This document shows positions 1-6,083 of a stretch of DNA of 6,083 nucleotides, piece by piece. The position numbers were made by a program, and so were the translations under genes. Source of the stretch: a virus (lineage: Duplodnaviria; Heunggongvirae; Uroviricota; Caudoviricetes); IMG/VR virus record IMGVR_UViG_2529292885_000013. One strand, given 5' to 3'. The notes under the pieces were generated by a model that had not been told where the DNA came from, searched no databases, and was given only the letters and a program-made list of their open reading frames with translations. Numbering within the stretch: position 1 is the first letter of the stretch; every line of letters begins with the position of its first letter.

Positions 1-538
1 ATTTCTTCCTGTGTTGCGGCTTCCCGGACTGGTAACGCAGCACCTGCTGGCTGAGGAAAGGCCTTACCATCATTTTTCGTTACCGGCGCGGCTTTCGGAT
101 CTGCTGGTAAATTACCCCCCGACATGCAGTAACGAAATTTACCGTTCTGATTAACGCGTGCCAGCCGCCCCGTTGCGGTTACCACCGCCAGCGTGGAAGC
201 AACCTTGCGAGTACTGACGCCGAACTTACCCGCCAGTTCCTCACACGTTTTAGCACCATCCTGACCGATAAACTCAACCATCATGTCTGCGGTAACTTTT
301 GGAGCGACCTCTTCGGTTACCACATCCGGCGCTTCAGGTTGTAGTGCCTGCCCTTCGGTTACCCCGGCTTCACCTTCGACAGCCAGAAACCAGGTGTGAC
401 CCGTTTTATCAACAACGCCATTTTTTTGAGTTCCCACAGTTCGTTAAGAACTTCTTCACGGCTGATATCAAGCCGCGCCGCCAGTTCAACAGAATTGGCT
501 TTTCCCATCGCTTTCAGTGCATGCAATACAGTTTCCAT
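1..538 (-). pseudogene. Frameshifted, 5'-complete but 3'-truncated-by-window gene for a prophage protein with tandem winged-helix-like domains (N-terminal 59-codon frame 538..359; continuation in the -1 frame from ~427 to position 1 and beyond)
   Basis: Minus-strand ATG at 538 with GAGGT 9 nt upstream, 25 nt after the DnaC-like stop. It translates [39 protein letters not shown], then stops at 359 in that frame. Re-reading one base at the A7 run (T7 on plus, 421-427) gives ...[20 protein letters not shown]..., which completes a winged-helix fold and stays open for >170 codons to the window edge. A second similar domain follows (MMVEFIGQDGAKTCEELAGKFGVSTRKVASTLAVVTATGRLARVNQNGKFRYCM). Absent from the ORF track because neither frame is a complete long ORF. 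Confidence 0.5.
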
Positions 539-563
539 CGAAAATTTACCTCGTCAAAAATTC

Positions 564-1304
564 TCACATACCCTGACGTCCAACGTTTGACCGCCAGCTC
601 TCCCAGTTAAAATTCACCCAACGACCACCATTCATGGTCATACGGTCCATCACCCGATCTCCGAGGAGTGTGCTCATCGCTGCGTGATTCAGGTTCGTCA
701 GCATTCCGACACTACGCATCGAAGCCGTTCTGCGGTCGACTATCTGGTTCAGCGTGACCTGCTCGTTGCGCGTATCCCGCTGCATGCCAATTTCATCAAG
801 GACCAGAAGGTCAACTCCACAAAGCTCCTGTAAAAATTTTTCCCCGGACTGGCCGTTGTCGTAGCCGTCATGCAACACGCTCATGACATCGGACACGGTG
901 ACGATAATCACGCTTCTCCCCTTCGCCATCAGCCGATTGCCAATCGCTGCTGCCAGGTGATTTTTACCGGTACCAGGTTTACCGCTGAACACGAAGTTTG
1001 TACATCCGGTCATCAATTCATCGGCAATGGATTTCGCCTGGCTCAGAGCATGGCGCTGACCGTCGTTCTGCACCCGGTAGTTCCCGAATGAGCACTTCCT
1101 GTGAAGCGGCTGGATGCCCGCACGGTTCAGGATTTTTTCAACCCGCACCTGATGATTCAGGCGGTTAATCTCCTCGCTGCGTTTTCGTCCTTCAGCAAGT
1201 TGCCATTCCCGCCACTCCTCCACCGTCCGGTACGGTGGAACCGCCCCCTGTGGTGCAAGTCTGCGAATACGTTCAAGAACCCCAACTGCCGCAATGTTTT
1301 TCAT
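564..1304 (-). CDS. DnaC-like replicative helicase loader (lambda P-equivalent, IstB/DnaC AAA+ ATPase)
   Basis: 246-aa ORF with Walker A (FSGKPGTGKNHLAAAIG) and Walker B (DLLVLDEIG) motifs. Start ATG lies 6 nt after the stop of the upstream O-like gene with a G-rich SD, an operon arrangement typical of lambdoid replication modules. Similar in size and position to Rac YdaV (from memory). Confidence 0.9.
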   Translation of the reverse strand: MKNIAAVGVLERIRRLAPQGAVPPYRTVEEWREWQLAEGRKRSEEINRLNHQVRVEKILNRAGIQPLHRKCSFGNYRVQNDGQRHALSQAKSIADELMTGCTNFVFSGKPGTGKNHLAAAIGNRLMAKGRSVIIVTVSDVMSVLHDGYDNGQSGEKFLQELCGVDLLVLDEIGMQRDTRNEQVTLNQIVDRRTASMRSVGMLTNLNHAAMSTLLGDRVMDRMTMNGGRWVNFNWESWRSNVGRQGM

Positions 1305-1310
1305 GACACG

Positions 1311-2288
1311 TCACCCCCTGAATCCCGGCGGTATTTCAGTGTCCGGTTCAGAAATGTGATTCACGCAACGCTGCGCGGGCGAACGCCCCAGGCGGATAAC
1401 CAGTTCATCCCATTTTTCCCGGAGTTTTGCCGGACTCATGATGTTTTTTACCCAGAACGAATCCCGCTGGAGACGCCCAAACATTTCACAAATTTGTCTG
1501 TGAGTTCTGCCATCCAGCATCCGCATTGTCCGCACGTCATTGGCCCATGCAGTCCAGTTGGGTTCTTTCGGTCTCGTGATCTCGCCATCATCGCTGGCCG
1601 CCTGCTCGTAAAGACTCACGATTCGTCCCCAGATCCACTGTGCGCACACCAAATCTTCCTGACTTCCCCACTGGCGTTTTTTCGCACTGAACACAACCGC
1701 GTCAGGGTGTCGGGTTAAAAAATTCTGTTCAGCCGTCTGCGGGTCCGGTTGCGAAGCGTCCGGACAAGAAGATCTTTTATCTGACGGATCAGGTTTTAAT
1801 ACTGACGGATCGGGGTCAATCATCGCCCCCCTAATCGGCAGTTTGTTATCAACAGTTGATCCATCAAAATTTGACGGGTCAACCGTTGAGGGGGCAATAT
1901 TTGACGGGTCAACTGTTAACGGGTCATTTTTTGCCGGGCTAATTTTTCTTTTCGGTTTATATGACTCACGCGCCGCCGCAGCAGCTGCTTCGAGTTTTTC
2001 CACATTAAGCCGATAGATATTGCTTACATTACGCCCACCGACCTTACGCTCTTCCTTCGTCAGCCAGCCCTCTTTCGCCAGTTCTGCAATAGCCGATTTC
2101 ACTGTGGATTCACTTCTTGCACCGATCTGACGCCGGATAGTTTCAATGGCAGGCCATGACACGCCCTCGTCATTGCTGTAGTCTGCAAGACGGGCCATAA
2201 CCGCCACCCTGGATAAGATCATGCCGGTGAAGGCGCACCCTTCCCAGACAAGACCATGAAGCTTGCTGCTCATAAAACCCCCGAACAC
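1311..2288 (-). CDS. Phage replication initiator (lambda O-like replisome organiser) with N-terminal HTH domain; start either GTG at 2288 or, more likely, ATG at 2273
   Basis: 325-aa ORF. N-terminal winged-HTH-like segment (LSRVAVMARLADYSNDEGVSWPAIETIRRQIGARSESTVKSAIAELAKEGWLTKEE), a central low-complexity linker (AAAAAARE...PLTVDPSNIAPSTVDPSNFDGSTVDN) encoded by iteron DNA, and a C-terminal domain. Sits immediately upstream of the DnaC-like gene. The ATG at 2273 is preceded by GGGGG; the GTG at 2288 has no SD. Confidence 0.85.
   Translation of the reverse strand: MFGGFMSSKLHGLVWEGCAFTGMILSRVAVMARLADYSNDEGVSWPAIETIRRQIGARSESTVKSAIAELAKEGWLTKEERKVGGRNVSNIYRLNVEKLEAAAAAARESYKPKRKISPAKNDPLTVDPSNIAPSTVDPSNFDGSTVDNKLPIRGAMIDPDPSVLKPDPSDKRSSCPDASQPDPQTAEQNFLTRHPDAVVFSAKKRQWGSQEDLVCAQWIWGRIVSLYEQAASDDGEITRPKEPNWTAWANDVRTMRMLDGRTHRQICEMFGRLQRDSFWVKNIMSPAKLREKWDELVIRLGRSPAQRCVNHISEPDTEIPPGFRG
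1781..1965. repeat. Putative prophage origin of replication: iteron cluster inside the O-like gene plus adjacent AT-rich stretch
   Basis: TTGACGGGTCAAC(C/T)GTT occurs at 1871-1887 and 1901-1917 (30-bp period). Related palindromic units ATCAACAGTTGAT (1848-1860), TCAACCGTTGA (1880-1890) and AACGGGTCA (1918-1926). CTGACGGATC is repeated at 1781-1790 and 1802-1811. AT-rich segment ~1925-1965 (cattttttgccgggctaatttttcttttcggtttatatgac). Lambda ori likewise lies in the middle of gene O. Confidence 0.6.
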
Positions 2289-2295
2289 CGTGCTT

Positions 2296-2721
2296 TTAGT
2301 GCATCACCACAGCATTCCCTGCCGGGCCGCCGCGATTCATCTGGTCATACAAAACAACCGCTGACGCAACAAAATCATCGACATCCTTCACCAGCCGATC
2401 CCTCCGTTCGACGATCTCACGGTAATATTCAGAACTGTGGCTGCGCATACGGGCCACCAGCAAAGGCGGCATCGCCTTTTCGATCGCCGGTAACAGAGCC
2501 TGCATTTTTTCAACAGCATCAGGGGTGTCTTTATCCAGCCAACGGAAAATTTTCTGGGTATTACGGGCCAGGGCTTCCGGATGGCTGTCGTCATACAGTT
2601 CCGGGAACGTCATTCCCAGCTCGAAATACGCTTTGGTAATTTTCGCAGCCGGTACTTTTTCGCCGTCCGGATGCGCCCAGACATTCATCGCCATGCGGAT
2701 GTGTTCATGCTTGATTTTCAT
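2296..2721 (-). CDS. ydaT: YdaT-like protein (occupies the cII position of the Rac-type immunity region)
   Basis: 141-aa ORF immediately downstream of, and overlapping by 4 bp (ATGA) with, the Cro-like gene; 7 nt upstream of the O-like gene. Size and position match Rac YdaT (~140 aa). Family assignment is from memory. Confidence 0.65.
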   Translation of the reverse strand: MKIKHEHIRMAMNVWAHPDGEKVPAAKITKAYFELGMTFPELYDDSHPEALARNTQKIFRWLDKDTPDAVEKMQALLPAIEKAMPPLLVARMRSHSSEYYREIVERRDRLVKDVDDFVASAVVLYDQMNRGGPAGNAVVMH

Positions 2722-3020
2722 GAATCAACTCCATCAGATAAGCATGCACTACAATCACCTTCAGCATGAACTACATGTGTTTGCCCCAAACGAATGCCGC
2801 TCGCATACTCAGGCCAAATAAGCTCCCAATCATGGGGTCGTAGCTCCGCCCTACTTACTTGGCCTTCCGTCGCAGATTCGATCATAAGGGCGCGGGTTGG
2901 AGATATAGCTGTTCGTCCAGACGCCATTTGCGATAAGTAAGATGGCGATACACCAAGTCTGGCCGCGAATTTCTTAGCATCACCAACCCTTAATGATTTA
3001 ATAAACTCTTTTAATGTCAT
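2718..3020 (-). CDS. ydaS: Cro-like HTH transcriptional regulator (YdaS family)
   Basis: 100-aa ORF with an HTH segment (AKKFAARLGVSPSYLSQMASGRTAISPTRALMIESAT) and an ELRPHDWELIWPE motif that I recall from YdaS/Cro-like prophage regulators. SD GAGGAAGG precedes the ATG. Divergent from the CI-like repressor gene across an operator-rich intergenic region. Confidence 0.75.
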   Translation of the reverse strand: MTLKEFIKSLRVGDAKKFAARLGVSPSYLSQMASGRTAISPTRALMIESATEGQVSRAELRPHDWELIWPEYASGIRLGQTHVVHAEGDCSACLSDGVDS

Positions 3021-3117
3021 ACCTTCCTCGGTTTAGTGTTTTTTTGCGAGTTTAGTGTTTAATAAACCATTAAGTCAAGTATTTGCTTGTTTAGTGATTA
3101 CTAAAGATAATTACCAC
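3021..3117. promoter_or_regulatory. Divergent immunity promoter/operator region (pR-like on minus strand, pRM-like on plus strand) with repeated TTTAGT/ACTAAA half-sites
   Basis: Plus strand: -35 TTGCTT (3083-3088), 17-bp spacer, -10 GATAAT (3106-3111), ATG at 3118. Minus strand: -35 TTGACT (3078..3073), 18-bp spacer, -10 TAAACT (3054..3049). Inverted repeat TTTAGT-GATT-ACTAAA at 3090-3105 fills the plus-promoter spacer; further TTTAGT copies at 3032-3037 and 3051-3056; GTTTA-A-TAAAC palindrome at 3056-3066. Confidence 0.6.
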
Positions 3118-3489
3118 ATGCAAAAAAAAGAAATTCGCCGTTTACGTCTCAAGGAGTGGTTTAAAGATAAAACTCTGCCACCCAAAGAGAAGAGCTACCT
3201 ATCTCAACTAATGAGTGGGAGAGCCTCGTTTGGAGAAAAGGCTGCCAGAAGAATAGAGCAAACATACGGGATGCCGGAAGGGTATCTGGATGCGGAATAC
3301 GCAGAACAACCGGGGGGTTCTCCACCACATGCAGGGTTAACGTCTAATCAACTGGAATTATTGCAGATTTTTTCAGCCTTCCCTGAGGATGAGCAACGCC
3401 AGATAATCAGCGAGTTAAAGCAGAAAAAAGAATCAATGGAAGATCTCATAGCGAGATGGATTGCGGCGCAAAAATGCCGCCGCGCCTGA
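3118..3489 (+). CDS. paaR: CI-like HTH (XRE-family) repressor; candidate PaaR-type regulator of the downstream ParE toxin-antitoxin pair and candidate prophage repressor
   Basis: 123 aa from the ATG at 3118 (MQKKEIRRLRLKEWF...). HTH segment SYLSQLMSGRASFGEKAARRIEQTYGMPEGYLD. Located exactly at the cI position, divergent from the cro-like gene. No SD upstream and a -10 hexamer 6 nt before the ATG suggest a leaderless mRNA. The in-frame upstream ATG at 3055 (144 aa) lies inside the operator region and lacks an SD. Confidence 0.7.
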   Translation: MQKKEIRRLRLKEWFKDKTLPPKEKSYLSQLMSGRASFGEKAARRIEQTYGMPEGYLDAEYAEQPGGSPPHAGLTSNQLELLQIFSAFPEDEQRQIISELKQKKESMEDLIARWIAAQKCRRA

Positions 3490-3509
3490 GTTATAAAACC
3501 GGAGGAAAC

Positions 3510-3701
3510 ATGAATAGAGCCCTTTCACCAATGGTTTCTGAATTTGAAACCATTGAACAAGAAAACAGTTACAACGAATGGCTGCGTGCGAAAGTAGCAA
3601 CGAGCCTTGCAGATCCGCGCCCAGCAATTCCCCATGACGAAGTTGAGCGCAGAATGGCAGAACGCTTTGCTAAGATGCGCAAGGAACGGAGCAAGCAGTA
3701 A
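3510..3701 (+). CDS. paaA: Small antitoxin of a ParE-family toxin-antitoxin pair (PaaA-like, ParE-associated antitoxin)
   Basis: 63-aa ORF from the ATG at 3510 with a GGAGG SD 5 nt upstream (MNRALSPMVSEFETIEQENSYNEWLRAKVATSLADPRPAIPHDEVERRMAERFAKMRKERSKQ). Its stop TAA (3699-3701) is 1 nt before the toxin ATG (3703), indicating translational coupling. Small, charged and helix-prone. Matches my recollection of the 63-aa PaaA2 antitoxin of E. coli O157:H7; paralogue number (1 vs 2) cannot be resolved here. Confidence 0.7.
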   Translation: MNRALSPMVSEFETIEQENSYNEWLRAKVATSLADPRPAIPHDEVERRMAERFAKMRKERSKQ

Positions 3702-3702
3702 A

Positions 3703-3981
3703 ATGTTACCCGTGTTATGGCTTGAAAGCGCAGATACCGACCTAGATGATATAACTAGTTATATTGCTCGTTTCGACATAGATGCGGCTGAACGCTTATG
3801 GCAGCGATTAAGGGGTTGTGTGCTGCCGTTATCCGAACATCCGTATTTATACCCACCAAGCGACAGAGTACCTGGCTTGCGTGAGATTGTAGCCCACCCT
3901 AACTATATAATTCTATACCGCGTAACAACATCAAGCGTTGAAGTAGTAAACGTGATCCACGCAAGACGCCAGTTTCCCTAA
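3703..3981 (+). CDS. parE: ParE/RelE-superfamily toxin (ParE-like)
   Basis: 92-aa ORF from the ATG at 3703 (MLPVLWLESADTDLDDITSYIARFDIDAAERLWQRLRGCVLPLSEHPYLYPPSDRVPGLREIVAHPNYIILYRVTTSSVEVVNVIHARRQFP). Shows the ParE hallmarks: N-terminal W...A..DL..I..YI, central P.LG...R...LRE, C-terminal Y.I.YRV......V.V..V.HARR. Tightly coupled to the upstream antitoxin gene. Confidence 0.85.
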   Translation: MLPVLWLESADTDLDDITSYIARFDIDAAERLWQRLRGCVLPLSEHPYLYPPSDRVPGLREIVAHPNYIILYRVTTSSVEVVNVIHARRQFP

Positions 3982-4006
3982 CTTTCACTACCAATAGAAA
4001 CATAAC

Positions 4007-4046
4007 AACCGCAACGACTTTATCAAAAGCGTTGTGTTTGTTATGT
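4007..4046 (+). terminator. Weak candidate intrinsic terminator downstream of the toxin gene
   Basis: Imperfect hairpin: AACCGCAACG (4007-4016), 13-nt loop, CGTTGTGTTTG (4030-4040; 5 perfect bp plus G-U and mismatch-interrupted pairs), followed by a T-rich tail (tttgttatgt). Confidence 0.25.
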
Positions 4047-4050
4047 CCCG

Positions 4051-4096
4051 CGGTTTAGTTTTTACTTGACTTAAGTTTAATGTTTATTAAACTAAA
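4051..4096 (+). promoter_or_regulatory. pL-like outward promoter with operator half-sites (oL-like), related in sequence to the pR-like element
   Basis: -35 TTGACT (4066-4071), 16-bp spacer, -10 TAAACT (4088-4093). The stretch ACTTGACTTAA...GTTTATTAAAC...CTAAA is shared with the minus-strand reading of the oR region (3050-3082). TTTAGT at 4054-4059 and ACTAAA at 4091-4096 match the oR half-sites. Confidence 0.4.
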
Positions 4097-4411
4097 AATA
4101 CCAACCCACCCCGCCCCACAGAACGCAGGGAAATACTTCGAGTTACCCGGCAGTGGTCAGGGGTTAAGTAGCCAGCCCGAGGCGTATGAACATGACGGCA
4201 GGGTTCAACTTTAATAACTATGCAGCAGTTTTTTGTTCCGCTACCCCGGCGTTAAGGGGAAACAGAGGGTTTCTCAGTGGGCGAAGTCAAACATCAGAAT
4301 GGAAGGCATCCCGGGATCGGCAAAGAAGCAGCAATGGCGCTTTATATTGACATCAGCGCCATTGCAGGACAGGTAAGAGTTATCAGAGCGGTAACTAAGC
4401 GGTATGCGCCT

Positions 4412-4612
4412 TTACTTCAGAAAGTCTCTGGTGAGTGCACCGAAGATATTGTCAACGATTTCGTCATCGAACTGCGAGGACTCATCTTCAGTTACAAGGT
4501 GACCACAATTTTTGCAGATGGCTCCCGCGAAACTGTCAGAGCCCTGCGGCTTAAAGGATGTGTCAAAGACTTCGCCACCACATTCTGGGCAAGAAAACTT
4601 GATTGTATTCAT
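4412..4612 (-). CDS. Small zinc-ribbon protein (CxxC...CxxC), hypothetical
   Basis: 66 aa from the ATG at 4612 (the ORF track starts 2 codons earlier at a TTG). SD AGGA 8 nt upstream. Two Cys pairs (CPEC and CKNC) about 20 residues apart. Codon usage is typical E. coli, whereas the overlapping plus-strand ORF 4277..4633 is rich in rare AGA/AGG/CGA codons. Confidence 0.55.
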   Translation of the reverse strand: MNTIKFSCPECGGEVFDTSFKPQGSDSFAGAICKNCGHLVTEDESSQFDDEIVDNIFGALTRDFLK

Positions 4613-4705
4613 AACCAATTTCCTCTCGAGTAACAGACCCCTCAGAGGATACCACCTCGCCTGACGTGGTTAAAAAGCAGGCAACGCTAACCACAAGGAG
4701 CCGAC

Positions 4706-4946: not shown

Positions 4947-5354
4947 ATGGAATTTAAAGATTTACCAACGCCATTACAGGAAATGGCATCGAATATAGTT
5001 CGTTCACAACTGGCTACTCTTGACCTTAGTACCGCAGAAAAAGAAACCATCGATAATATGGTTCGTAATGTGCGCAATGCTTTTTCTGGGCTATATGGTT
5101 CTGATAATCAAAAGCAGGAAAGCGATGTTAATAAACGGGTAATTTCTGTTTGCGTGAATGGCCATGTTCTTTCATCAATCAAAACAGAAACGGCGACAGT
5201 CTTCGATTGCCTTTGCATTGTACAGAGCCTTGTTGATGCCCTGTTTCGTTCAGTGAATTTAGAAAATGATGCAAATCTGCGAGGGCGCATAATAGCACAT
5301 CCATATGCACATACTTTAGGCTCTGTGGATATCAAAGATCCCACAAATCTTTAA
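4947..5354 (+). CDS. Hypothetical 135-aa protein, AT-rich (moron-like) gene
   Basis: ATG at 4947 with GAGG SD 6 nt upstream. Long ORF in a locally AT-rich block (roughly 38-40% GC by eye versus over 50% in flanks). No family recognised. Confidence 0.6.
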   Translation: MEFKDLPTPLQEMASNIVRSQLATLDLSTAEKETIDNMVRNVRNAFSGLYGSDNQKQESDVNKRVISVCVNGHVLSSIKTETATVFDCLCIVQSLVDALFRSVNLENDANLRGRIIAHPYAHTLGSVDIKDPTNL

Positions 5355-5565
5355 TGAAATAGTTAACGCGAATTGTACTTGCTCTTTCGGTTGCTTTCAG
5401 AATACGCGTTGAAACTGCTGGCGGTAATTTGGTATTCCATTTATTAAAATCATGCCCGGGAAAGTACTCTTCGAAAATACTTTTAACTGCAGACTCGCCT
5501 ATTGAAATGCTGCTTACCATGCGATTTTGATAAAGGCATTTAGCAATAAGAGTTGATTTTAACAT
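5332..5565 (-). CDS. Hypothetical 77-aa protein, convergent with and overlapping the 3' end of the 135-aa gene by 23 bp
   Basis: ATG at 5565 with strong SD AGGAGG (rev-comp of 5570-5575) 4 nt upstream. AT-rich codons consistent with the neighbouring gene. No family recognised. Confidence 0.5.
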   Translation of the reverse strand: MLKSTLIAKCLYQNRMVSSISIGESAVKSIFEEYFPGHDFNKWNTKLPPAVSTRILKATERASTIRVNYFIKDLWDL

Positions 5566-6083
5566 TCACCCTCCTGAGGGTTGGTAATTAAGGAGTTCTC
5601 CACGGGTGAAGTGGAGTGCGTGCGCCGGACACGGGTGAACATCCGGCACTGACAGTTTACTGAAAGGATATTTCTCTGAAAAGTCAGAGCATAACGCGAA
5701 AGCGCACGGCGAGGTTGCTGGTTCATAGATAGCCTGTCGTTAAATTTTCGTCGACCGTGCGCTTCCGGTTGTGGCACTCCGCGAAATGGCGCAGCGGTAA
5801 GTATGGCGGGGTTATTCCTTCCCCGTTGAGGACACCGGGTTGTCAGGTTGACCATACGCTTAAGTGACAACCCCGCTGCAACGCCCTCTGTTATCAATTT
5901 TCTGGTGACGTTTGGCGGCATCTGTTTGCCCATGAACTGATGTCCGCCCTTTTTAAAGTGAATTTTGTGATGCAGTGAATGCGGCTAAGCGCACGCGGAA
6001 CAGTTAAAGCTAAAAACAGTGTTATGGGTGGATTCTCTGTATCCGGCGTTAATTGTTAACTGGTTAACGTCACCTGGAGGCAC

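Follow-up and report, generated by a model that had tools for sequence, protein, structure and literature searches.

The window, the whole 6,083-bp stretch of DNA analysed here, carries a three-gene module on its plus strand, comprising paaR2 (3118..3489), paaA2 (3510..3701), and parE2 (3703..3981). PaaA2 is a 63-aa antitoxin without a DNA-binding domain; the sole domain found in it is Pfam PaaA2 (1e-19), and the protein is identical to PDB 3ZBE and 5CW7. ParE2, a 92-aa toxin of the ParE family, matches PDB 5CW7_B at 92/92 residues and Pfam ParE_toxin above the cut-off (1.9e-16). PaaR2, a repressor and CI analogue of 123 aa, combines an N-terminal HTH domain with a C-terminal oligomerisation domain and carries no S24 peptidase. 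Pfam returned no matches for PaaR2 at E <= 0.01, an S24 domain being likewise undetected, and the protein was placed by PHROGs and PDB sequence search instead. Residues 1-66 correspond to PDB 7NKV, 'Phage repressor protein CI', with all native residues compared being identical, the PHROG assignment is 5736 ('transcriptional regulator'), and over its full length the protein does not differ from the copy in O157:H7 NE92.

As the first gene of this same-strand cluster, paaR2 encodes a separate HTH regulator and lies 20 nt 5' of paaA2, whose ribosome-binding site GGAGG is at 3501-3505. The paaA2 stop and the parE2 start are only 1 nt apart (junction sequence CAGTAAAATG), which suggests translational coupling of the pair. 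A regulator start at GTG 3055, giving the longest open reading frame (144 aa), was dropped in favour of ATG 3118 because the resulting 123-aa product is PaaR2 and the N-terminus MQKKE has been determined experimentally (PMC8630535). The locus thus has the elements by which a PaaR-PaaA-ParE system is recognised: a ParE-family toxin, an adjoining PaaA antitoxin lacking a DNA-binding domain, and a separate leading HTH regulator. Judged by sequence identity, the module is PaaR2-PaaA2-ParE2 from prophage CP-933P of E. coli O157:H7; for identical sequences it has been published that ParE2 is toxic, PaaA2 neutralises it, and the operon is co-transcribed (Hallez 2010, summarised in PMC8630535). The likeness to the O157:H7 paaR-paaA-parE systems that the original prediction had proposed proves to be identity, both in the PDB searches and against the NE92 copy.

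The 97-bp spacer between paaR2 and ydaS (3021..3117) forms the OR region, recognised by its repeat family and by motif enrichment. Two 18-bp palindromes at 3050-3067 and 3089-3106 are accompanied by half-conserved copies at 3031-3048 and 3070-3087. The GTTTAGT word typical of these operators occurs four times in the 6083 bp (3031, 3050, 3089, and 4053), exclusively in OR and OL, with about 0.63 copies expected by chance and four copies reached in 0/200 shuffles. Beyond parE2, repeats, a promoter scan, and the same motif delineate the OL/PL933P region (4051..4096, plus strand), with operators GTTTAGTTTTTACTTGAC at 4053-4070 and the palindrome GTTTAATGTTTATTAAAC at 4075-4092. A 12-nt perfect inverted repeat (3070-3081 and 4063-4074) joins both operator regions.

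The promoter scan places PR933P on the minus strand at 3049..3078, with -35 TTGACT (3078-3073), an 18-nt spacer, and -10 TAAACT (3054-3049), and 5' RACE and reporter activity support it (PMC8630535). PL933P on the plus strand has identical hexamers, TTGACT at 4066-4071 and TAAACT at 4088-4093 with a 16-nt spacer, and the two promoters face outward. PRM933P (3083..3111, plus strand), its putative hexamers read from the sequence by eye, comprises -35 TTGCTT (3083-3088), a 17-nt spacer, and -10 GATAAT (3106-3111); the published start site is the A of ATG 3118, giving PaaR2, with its N-terminal MQKKE, a leaderless mRNA as for cI (PMC8630535). The arrangement is that of a CI-type immunity region, having a repressor divergent from a cro-like HTH gene, a multi-operator spacer, and face-to-face promoters, while a second operator and promoter of the same motif, OL/PL, lies distal to the repressor operon and is directed away from it. 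The cI-rex-like placement of the regulator, the 63-aa antitoxin, and the 92-aa ParE-like toxin between PR-like and PL-like promoters, with divergence from the cro-like gene across operators, is real and well above chance, as the original prediction had it.

Between parE2 and OL, an inverted repeat folds as RNA into a long hairpin (4000..4046, plus strand) of -24 kcal/mol (z = -4.8), with equal stability reached in 0/200 shuffles. This hairpin was dropped as a terminator since it has no U-tract, and scanning for terminators 3' of parE2 gave no canonical intrinsic one. It possibly marks the operon 3' end or acts as an RNA-stabilising element.

On the minus strand, ydaS (2718..3020) encodes a 100-aa HTH protein, the Cro analogue, identified through Pfam (YdaS_toxin 3.3e-12, HTH_3 6e-07) and through PDB 8C7K, 'antirepressor protein Cro', which residues 1-100 match (E 1.5e-63). 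The neighbouring ydaT (2296..2721, minus strand) encodes a CII-like activator of 141 aa, supported by Pfam YdaT_toxin (2.8e-10), a match of residues 2-141 to PDB 8BT1 (E 7e-93), and assignment to PHROG 163, 'CII-like transcriptional activator'. The YdaT operator OM, TTGATTTTCATGAATCAA (2711..2728), sits at the ydaS/ydaT junction and is the single match in the window to TTGATTN6AATCAA, the YdaT site defined via footprinting (PMC9986795), with 0.03 matches expected by chance. The published F-PRE and R-PRE primers map exactly to 2693..2812 (plus strand), the reporter fragment of PRE933P, an alternative promoter toward paaR2 that is activated by YdaT (PMC8630535). PRE hexamers were sought near the YdaT site and none was assigned; the two papers place the promoter differently relative to OM (PMC8630535, PMC9986795). 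Structures exist for all five proteins, covering only the N-terminal domain in the case of PaaR2. RefSeq labels lag, with PaaR2 listed as 'hypothetical protein', PaaA2 as 'RelB family antitoxin', and YdaT as 'toxin YdaT family protein'.

Positions 1-4228 of the window show 100% DNA identity to an O157:H7 prophage (CP-933P/Sp12-type) beside ynfA. In sequence, PaaR2, PaaA2, ParE2, the OR and OL regions, and ydaS-ydaT are identical to those of CP-933P in O157:H7 EDL933. To the right of 4228, the sequence diverges slightly from the NE92 copy, and a two-gene block of 615 bp (4964-5578) in the window is absent from NE92. Rfam at gathering thresholds gave no matches in the window, and a relaxed search gave sub-threshold DicF only, outside the module. 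In the O157:H7 prophage, an IS element has inserted and the integrase is frameshifted, and CP-933P is stated to be defective (PMC9986795). The late region of the O157:H7 prophage has a gene annotated with an antirepressor domain, a candidate antirepressor of PaaR2.

The experiments called for by the original prediction had already been performed on the same fragments by Jurenas et al., mBio 2021 (PMC8630535). By primer mapping, the fragment used in the published EMSA corresponds exactly to 3021-3117 of the window, and that of the PL reporter to 3982-4099, which encloses 4051-4096. PaaR2 binds the 97-bp spacer in EMSA and DNase I footprinting, and GFP reporters show repression of PR933P and PL933P by PaaR2, with PL933P repressed ~100-fold by either PaaR2 or YdaS (PMC8630535). 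PRM is activated at a low PaaR2 dose and repressed at a high dose, and YdaS binds OR and represses PRM, PR, and PL (PMC8630535). These EMSA, footprint, and reporter data on identical DNA bear out the claim that the HTH protein both autoregulates and holds the lytic genes off. PaaR2 and YdaS constitute a bistable switch, in which the majority of cells carrying the plasmid reporter are ydaST-on, not repressor-on, and a paaR2 stop mutant locks cells ydaST-on (PMC8630535). PaaR2 lacks the peptidase motif and is reported not to respond to mitomycin C, PaaA2 is unstable and degraded by ClpAP and ClpXP, and the locus stabilises a mini-F plasmid through post-segregational killing (PMC8630535). The 2023 paper describes paaA2-parE2 in place of rexA-rexB and PaaR2 in place of CI (PMC9986795).

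Taken with these data, the window is very probably the lysis-lysogeny switch (immunity) region of a CP-933P/Sp12-type lambdoid prophage, with PaaR2 as the phage repressor. In this mechanism, PaaR2 made from the leaderless PRM933P transcript binds the GTTTAGT-type operators in OR (3021-3117) and OL (4051-4096), silencing PR933P and thereby keeping ydaS-ydaT and the O/P-like replication genes off, and silencing PL933P and thereby keeping the ydfC-DicF-dicB side off. Its own promoter is boosted at low concentration and shut at high concentration, and a PaaR2 octamer may loop OR to OL. YdaS competes at the same operators in the fashion of Cro, giving two heritable states, and YdaT acts in a CII-like manner via its TTGATTN6AATCAA site and PRE. 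The repressor transcript carries paaA2-parE2 in the slot of lambda rexA-rexB and, because PaaA2 has no DNA-binding domain, transcription of the pair relies wholly on the phage switch. Since the O157:H7 prophage is defective, 'lysogeny maintenance' by PaaR2, in the sense of control over a productive lytic cycle, stays a prediction.

Comparison with known systems places the region in context. Gene order and orientation are as in the lambda immunity region, and the two share multi-site operators at both ends and a leaderless mRNA for a repressor that forms octamers and regulates its own gene according to dose. In both, this repressor meets competition of the Cro type, and a CII-like activator works through a promoter of its own. 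The OR-OL distance is about 2.3 kb in lambda, whereas it is about 1 kb in the window, and a toxin-antitoxin pair stands in place of RexAB. According to the published papers, lambda CI, Cro, and CII have no detectable sequence similarity to the window proteins. Unlike CI, PaaR2 has neither an S24 autocleavage domain nor an SOS/mitomycin C response; it functions like CI yet lies outside the S24 (LexA/CI) family. The DicA/DicC region of the K-12 Qin prophage has the same ynfA-side neighbourhood and the same cargo (ydfC, DicF-like RNA, and dicB), with PaaR2 in the dicA position; PaaR2 weakly resembles DicA proteins from phages (27% identity, E = 4e-4). Repressor and operator specificity differ from those of Qin DicA, and Qin is not known to carry a toxin-antitoxin pair after dicA. 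PaaA2-ParE2 resembles the canonical two-gene parDE in its ParE-fold toxin, small labile antitoxin, and post-segregational killing, but differs in that PaaA2 has no DNA-binding domain and the complex exerts no autoregulation, transcription being controlled instead by the phage repressor together with the analogues of Cro and CII.

Relatives of the module provide new, minor observations, the first three of which lend independent support to the reading of the region as a phage switch. Coliphage Evi, an isolated phage, carries the whole module intact. In Klebsiella phage 5 LV-2017, the gene for a full-length homologue of PaaR2 (45% identity) lies opposite one that is YdaS-like, and the toxin-antitoxin pair is missing. 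A Burkholderia phage protein has an N-terminus 65% identical to the PaaR2-type HTH over 58 aa, fused to a C-terminal Peptidase_S24 (2.2e-15), and its gene is divergent from a YdaS-family gene. In the heteroimmune E. coli P15-385, the repressor C-terminal domain and the toxin-antitoxin pair are kept. The idea that this domain requires the pair, drawn from their co-occurrence in P15-385, was rejected because the Klebsiella phage homologue has the domain without the pair.

The role of the pair can be read in several ways. It may serve mainly as an anti-phage abortive-infection or exclusion module, as RexAB does, a reading that is compatible with the switch and shares with rexAB both position and a repressor transcript expressed in lysogens, although it seems unlikely overall. 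The pair behaves as detachable cargo, missing in the Klebsiella relative and found behind a heteroimmune repressor in P15-385, and PaaA2 is an unstable antitoxin, the feature through which toxin-antitoxin systems that act by abortive infection are usually triggered. Against this, PADLOC matched no defence-system model to PaaR2, PaaA2, or ParE2, the likeness to rexAB being one of position only; phage-challenge data were not found in the literature, and Jurenas et al. favour addiction and genome stabilisation (PMC8630535).

A stronger coupling, in which loss of PaaR2 frees ParE2 and the pair enforces lysogeny by arresting or killing derepressed cells, is highly improbable. Since the unstable PaaA2 is encoded on the repressor transcript, shut-off of PRM could in principle release the toxin, and the post-segregational killing seen from the mini-F plasmid points the same way (PMC8630535). 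However, SOS-positive cells are equally frequent (~0.9%) whether the switch is ydaST-on or RAE2-on, with ParE2 activated in neither state, toxin-antitoxin transcription is measurable in both, and the paaR2 stop mutant merely locked cells ydaST-on (PMC8630535). The tie between lysogeny and toxin control in the original prediction consequently holds for transcription and fails for ParE2 activation.

The idea that PaaR2 is a dedicated toxin-antitoxin regulator, in effect the DNA-binding part split off from an antitoxin, with its lambda-like placement incidental and another protein acting as the prophage repressor, draws on the missing DNA-binding domain of PaaA2, on the original description of PaaR2 as a toxin-antitoxin third component, and on the absence of any other obvious function in RefSeq, but is already largely refuted and can be given almost no credence, as PaaR2 represses PR933P and PL933P, neither of which drives the toxin-antitoxin genes (PMC8630535), the same operator word recurs at OL past parE2, homologues are pair-less (Klebsiella phage) or S24-fused (Burkholderia phage), and the immunity region holds no other repressor-like gene, the kind of separate repressor that the original prediction had named as counter-evidence.

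With PaaR2 as the phage repressor, the best-supported role for the pair is addiction, in which post-segregational killing keeps the immunity region or the prophage stable, and not growth arrest when the switch flips. As ParE2 activity was seen in neither state, this role stays a proposal.

The interpretation is right but already known since 2021-2023, the coupling to the immunity switch having been correctly predicted here and already printed in 2021 (PMC8630535) and 2023 (PMC9986795), and re-finding the module itself adds no knowledge. More speculatively, and on the doubtful side, viable temperate phages such as Evi might possess a working SOS-blind PaaR2 switch, derived from S24-type repressors by a C-terminal swap, with the pair in the rex slot protecting the lysogen through abortive infection or by killing heteroimmune recombinants, and with the C-terminal domain and the pair being exchanged jointly by recombination behind HTH/operator modules that can be swapped. 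The region is a textbook case of a type II pair stripped of its own transcriptional control and wired into a lysis-lysogeny switch in the RexAB slot, and phage Evi offers a tractable system for studying the value of the pair to a live phage and the induction of an SOS-uncleavable repressor.

The module at 3021-3981, which the original prediction placed in the cI-rex position, comprises plus-strand genes for a repressor, an antitoxin, and a toxin, as established by PDB sequence searches. The first gene, paaR2 (3118-3489, +), encodes 123 aa and shows full identity over residues 1-66 to 7NKV_A, a chain deposited as 'Phage repressor protein CI'; Pfam assigned no family to this product. paaA2 (3510-3701, +), with a GGAGG ribosome-binding site ahead of it, encodes 63 aa (Pfam PaaA2, 1e-19) identical to PaaA2 in 3ZBE/5CW7. 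The parE2 ATG lies one base past the paaA2 stop codon, and the gene (3703-3981, +) encodes 92 aa (Pfam ParE_toxin, 1.9e-16) with 92/92 identity to 5CW7_B. The anticipated match to PaaR2/PaaA2/ParE2 of O157:H7 thus proved to be identity, and the locus is the type example of the PaaR-PaaA-ParE three-component family, beyond a mere member. On the minus strand, the ydaS product (2718-3020) matches 8C7K, deposited as 'antirepressor protein Cro', over residues 1-100 (E 1.5e-63), and ydaT (2296-2721) matches YdaT in 8BT1 and 3C4R. Left of ydaT lie an O-like initiator gene (1311-2288) and a DnaC/IstB-like ATPase gene (564-1304).

The initiator gene contains a repeat with a 15-bp period at 1849-1938, in five overlapping, partly palindromic copies of the TTGACGGGTCAAC type; lambdoid origin iterons usually lie inside the O-like initiator gene. 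At its left end (1-538, -), the window matches a gene with a DUF1627 domain; RefSeq treats this gene as a frameshifted pseudogene in the identical O157:H7 sequence, and in the window a 59-aa N-terminal ORF (359-538) is all that stays open. RefSeq names PaaR2 'hypothetical protein', PaaA2 'RelB family antitoxin', and YdaT 'toxin YdaT family protein', and Pfam still calls the YdaS and YdaT families toxins. Contrary to these names, published evidence identifies YdaS and YdaT as Cro-like and CII-like regulators.

The paaR2-ydaS spacer (3021-3117), which serves as OR, is exactly 97 bp long. The 6083-bp window contains four copies of the heptamer GTTTAGT, at 3031, 3050, and 3089 in the spacer and at 4053 just past parE2, against a chance expectation of 0.63, with four or more copies in 0/200 shuffles. 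Palindromes of 18 bp start at two of the spacer copies, GTTTAGTGTTTAATAAAC (3050-3067) and GTTTAGTGATTACTAAAG (3089-3106), and positions 4075-4092 form a third, GTTTAATGTTTATTAAAC. A promoter scan of the window found the hexamer pair TTGACT/TAAACT twice, at 3078-3049 (-) directed toward ydaS and at 4066-4093 (+) pointing away from parE2. From the sequence we infer TTGCTT-17-GATAAT (3083-3111) as the putative repressor promoter; it ends six bases upstream of the ATG at 3118, a gap compatible with a leaderless mRNA. The published YdaT site, TTGATTN6AATCAA, has one match in the window (2711-2728), at the ydaS/ydaT junction. Between parE2 and OL, the sequence can fold into a stable hairpin (4000-4046; -24 kcal/mol, z = -4.8), which has no U-tract and may mark the 3' end of the operon or stabilise the RNA. 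In gene identities, spacer, operators, and promoters, the predicted placement and regulatory anatomy were confirmed in every particular.

The proposal that the HTH protein is the phage repressor is supported by experiments on this very DNA, and the finding is already known, having been examined and published in 2021 by Jurenas et al. (mBio 2021, PMC8630535). The supplementary primers of that study map exactly to the window and delimit 3021-3117 as the EMSA fragment, the same one that was suggested for this assay; the PL reporter spans 3982-4099 in plus orientation and encloses the suggested 4051-4096 fragment, and the PRE reporter spans 2693-2812. Both PaaR2 and YdaS bind the 97-bp spacer in EMSA and DNase I footprinting, with footprints of ~78 bp and ~65 bp, respectively, and each represses both PR933P, directed toward ydaS-ydaT, and PRM933P, the paaR2 promoter; low PaaR2 raises PRM while repressing PR (PMC8630535). 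PL933P, with OL1-3, is repressed ~100-fold by PaaR2 or by YdaS, PRE933P is activated by YdaT, and the paaR2 transcript starts at its own ATG and is translated leaderless, as for cI (PMC8630535). The immunity locus is bistable with a heritable state, and stop mutations in paaR2 or ydaS each abolish one state (PMC8630535). Functionally, the locus is a counterpart of lambda's cI-rex immunity region. The text of PMC8630535 puts PL933P 'upstream' of paaR2-paaA2-parE2, while its primers and construct description put it directly beyond the 3' end of parE2, in the same orientation and reading outward as in lambda; this mismatch is a matter of wording only.

The coupling of lysogeny to toxin control, also predicted, holds at the transcriptional level but does not extend to ParE2 release on switching at steady state. 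SOS-positive cells were ~0.9% in both switch states, as in controls, and the toxin-antitoxin genes are transcribed in either state (PMC8630535), so a switch flip releases no ParE2 at steady state. What has been demonstrated for the pair is that it stabilises a mini-F plasmid post-segregationally, and the authors propose that it protects the immunity region from rearrangement or heteroimmune recombination (PMC8630535). PADLOC found no match for the module among catalogued defence systems. The feature that defines S24-type CI was looked for in PaaR2 and is lacking: Pfam finds no S24 peptidase domain, an absence also stated in PMC8630535, and PaaR2 is not a homologue in that sense. It is reported to be unresponsive to mitomycin C (PMC8630535), and it shows weak similarity to phage DicA proteins.

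Window positions 1-4228 are base-for-base identical to a prophage of E. coli O157:H7 strain NE92 that adjoins ynfA and carries lambdoid Q, lysis, and terminase genes together with an IS insertion and a frameshifted integrase. It is a CP-933P/Sp12-type defective prophage, and 'prophage induction' therefore cannot be scored there. Among 5426 complete E. coli genomes, 595 carry the module region (3021-4100) at ≥80% coverage, 573 of them at ≥99% identity. Escherichia phage Evi (LR597642), a coliphage isolate obtained from the faeces of infants (PMC10910852), carries the entire immunity region at 95.6% identity, with complete structural, lysis, and replication gene sets. PaaR2, PaaA2, and ParE2 are identical at 121/123, 62/63, and 92/92 positions, and OR differs by one base. 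This intact module in a viable phage indicates that the switch is not confined to a dead prophage. The Evi parE2 gene (L002 24917-25195), intact and 92/92 identical, is unannotated in the deposited record.

The locus stands where Qin-type prophages have dicA, and ydfC, a DicF-like RNA, and dicB follow downstream. The DicF-like small RNA (5900-5949, +) matches the full Rfam RF00039 model (43.5 bits, E = 2e-08); it is absent from the default Rfam scan because its score falls just below the gathering score of 48. It lies upstream of the place annotated as dicB in the O157:H7 copy, and PL, hence PaaR2, probably controls a cell-division inhibitor operon. A ~615-bp block (4964-5578) holds two convergent genes, at 4947-5354 (+) and 5332-5565 (-), encoding 135 aa (PHROG 1363) and 77 aa (PHROG 10348), neither with a PADLOC or Pfam match. 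The NE92 prophage, otherwise near-identical, lacks the block; Evi has it, as do 646 complete E. coli genomes at ≥80% coverage. In the PL operon it lies between ydfC and DicF and resembles a mosaic accessory cassette. Just downstream of PL, a small zinc-ribbon gene (4412-4618, -; CxxC...CxxC), named 'ECs_2282 family putative zinc-binding protein' in RefSeq, lies on the opposite strand and would be read in antisense by transcription from PL; a terminator-like site follows it (4125-4107, -). Klebsiella phage 5 LV-2017 has a homologue in the same position and strand (29% identity, E = 4e-11), and the Evi record instead annotates an overlapping plus-strand ORF.

In Klebsiella phage 5 LV-2017, a PaaR2 homologue of full length (45% identity) stands opposite a gene of the YdaS family, with no PaaA/ParE genes between this homologue and the next conserved gene. 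The toxin-antitoxin pair is detachable cargo, and this case supports the published idea that it was inserted into the immunity region. In Burkholderia phage vB_E177 (L004 3001-3663), a 220-aa ORF opposite a YdaS-family gene is 65% identical to PaaR2 over its first 58 residues and ends in a Peptidase_S24 domain (2.2e-15), which places the PaaR2 DNA-binding domain in a lineage with classical SOS-cleavable repressors and gives independent support to the repressor assignment. This fusion suggests that the SOS-blind form arose by a C-terminal domain swap. The deposited vB_E177 CDS covers the C-terminal 3268-3663 alone, mis-annotating the repressor as a short hypothetical protein. E. coli P15-385 (L005 3574-4481) carries a heteroimmune version, in which a 132-aa repressor in the paaR2 slot combines an HTH unrelated to that of PaaR2 with a C-terminal domain 53% identical to it over 55 aa. 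A PaaA/ParE pair follows in the same position (ParE 93% identical), and the operators and YdaS/YdaT-family genes on the flanks of this version are different ones. Immunity specificity is thus one recombining module, and the repressor C-terminal domain together with the toxin-antitoxin pair is another.
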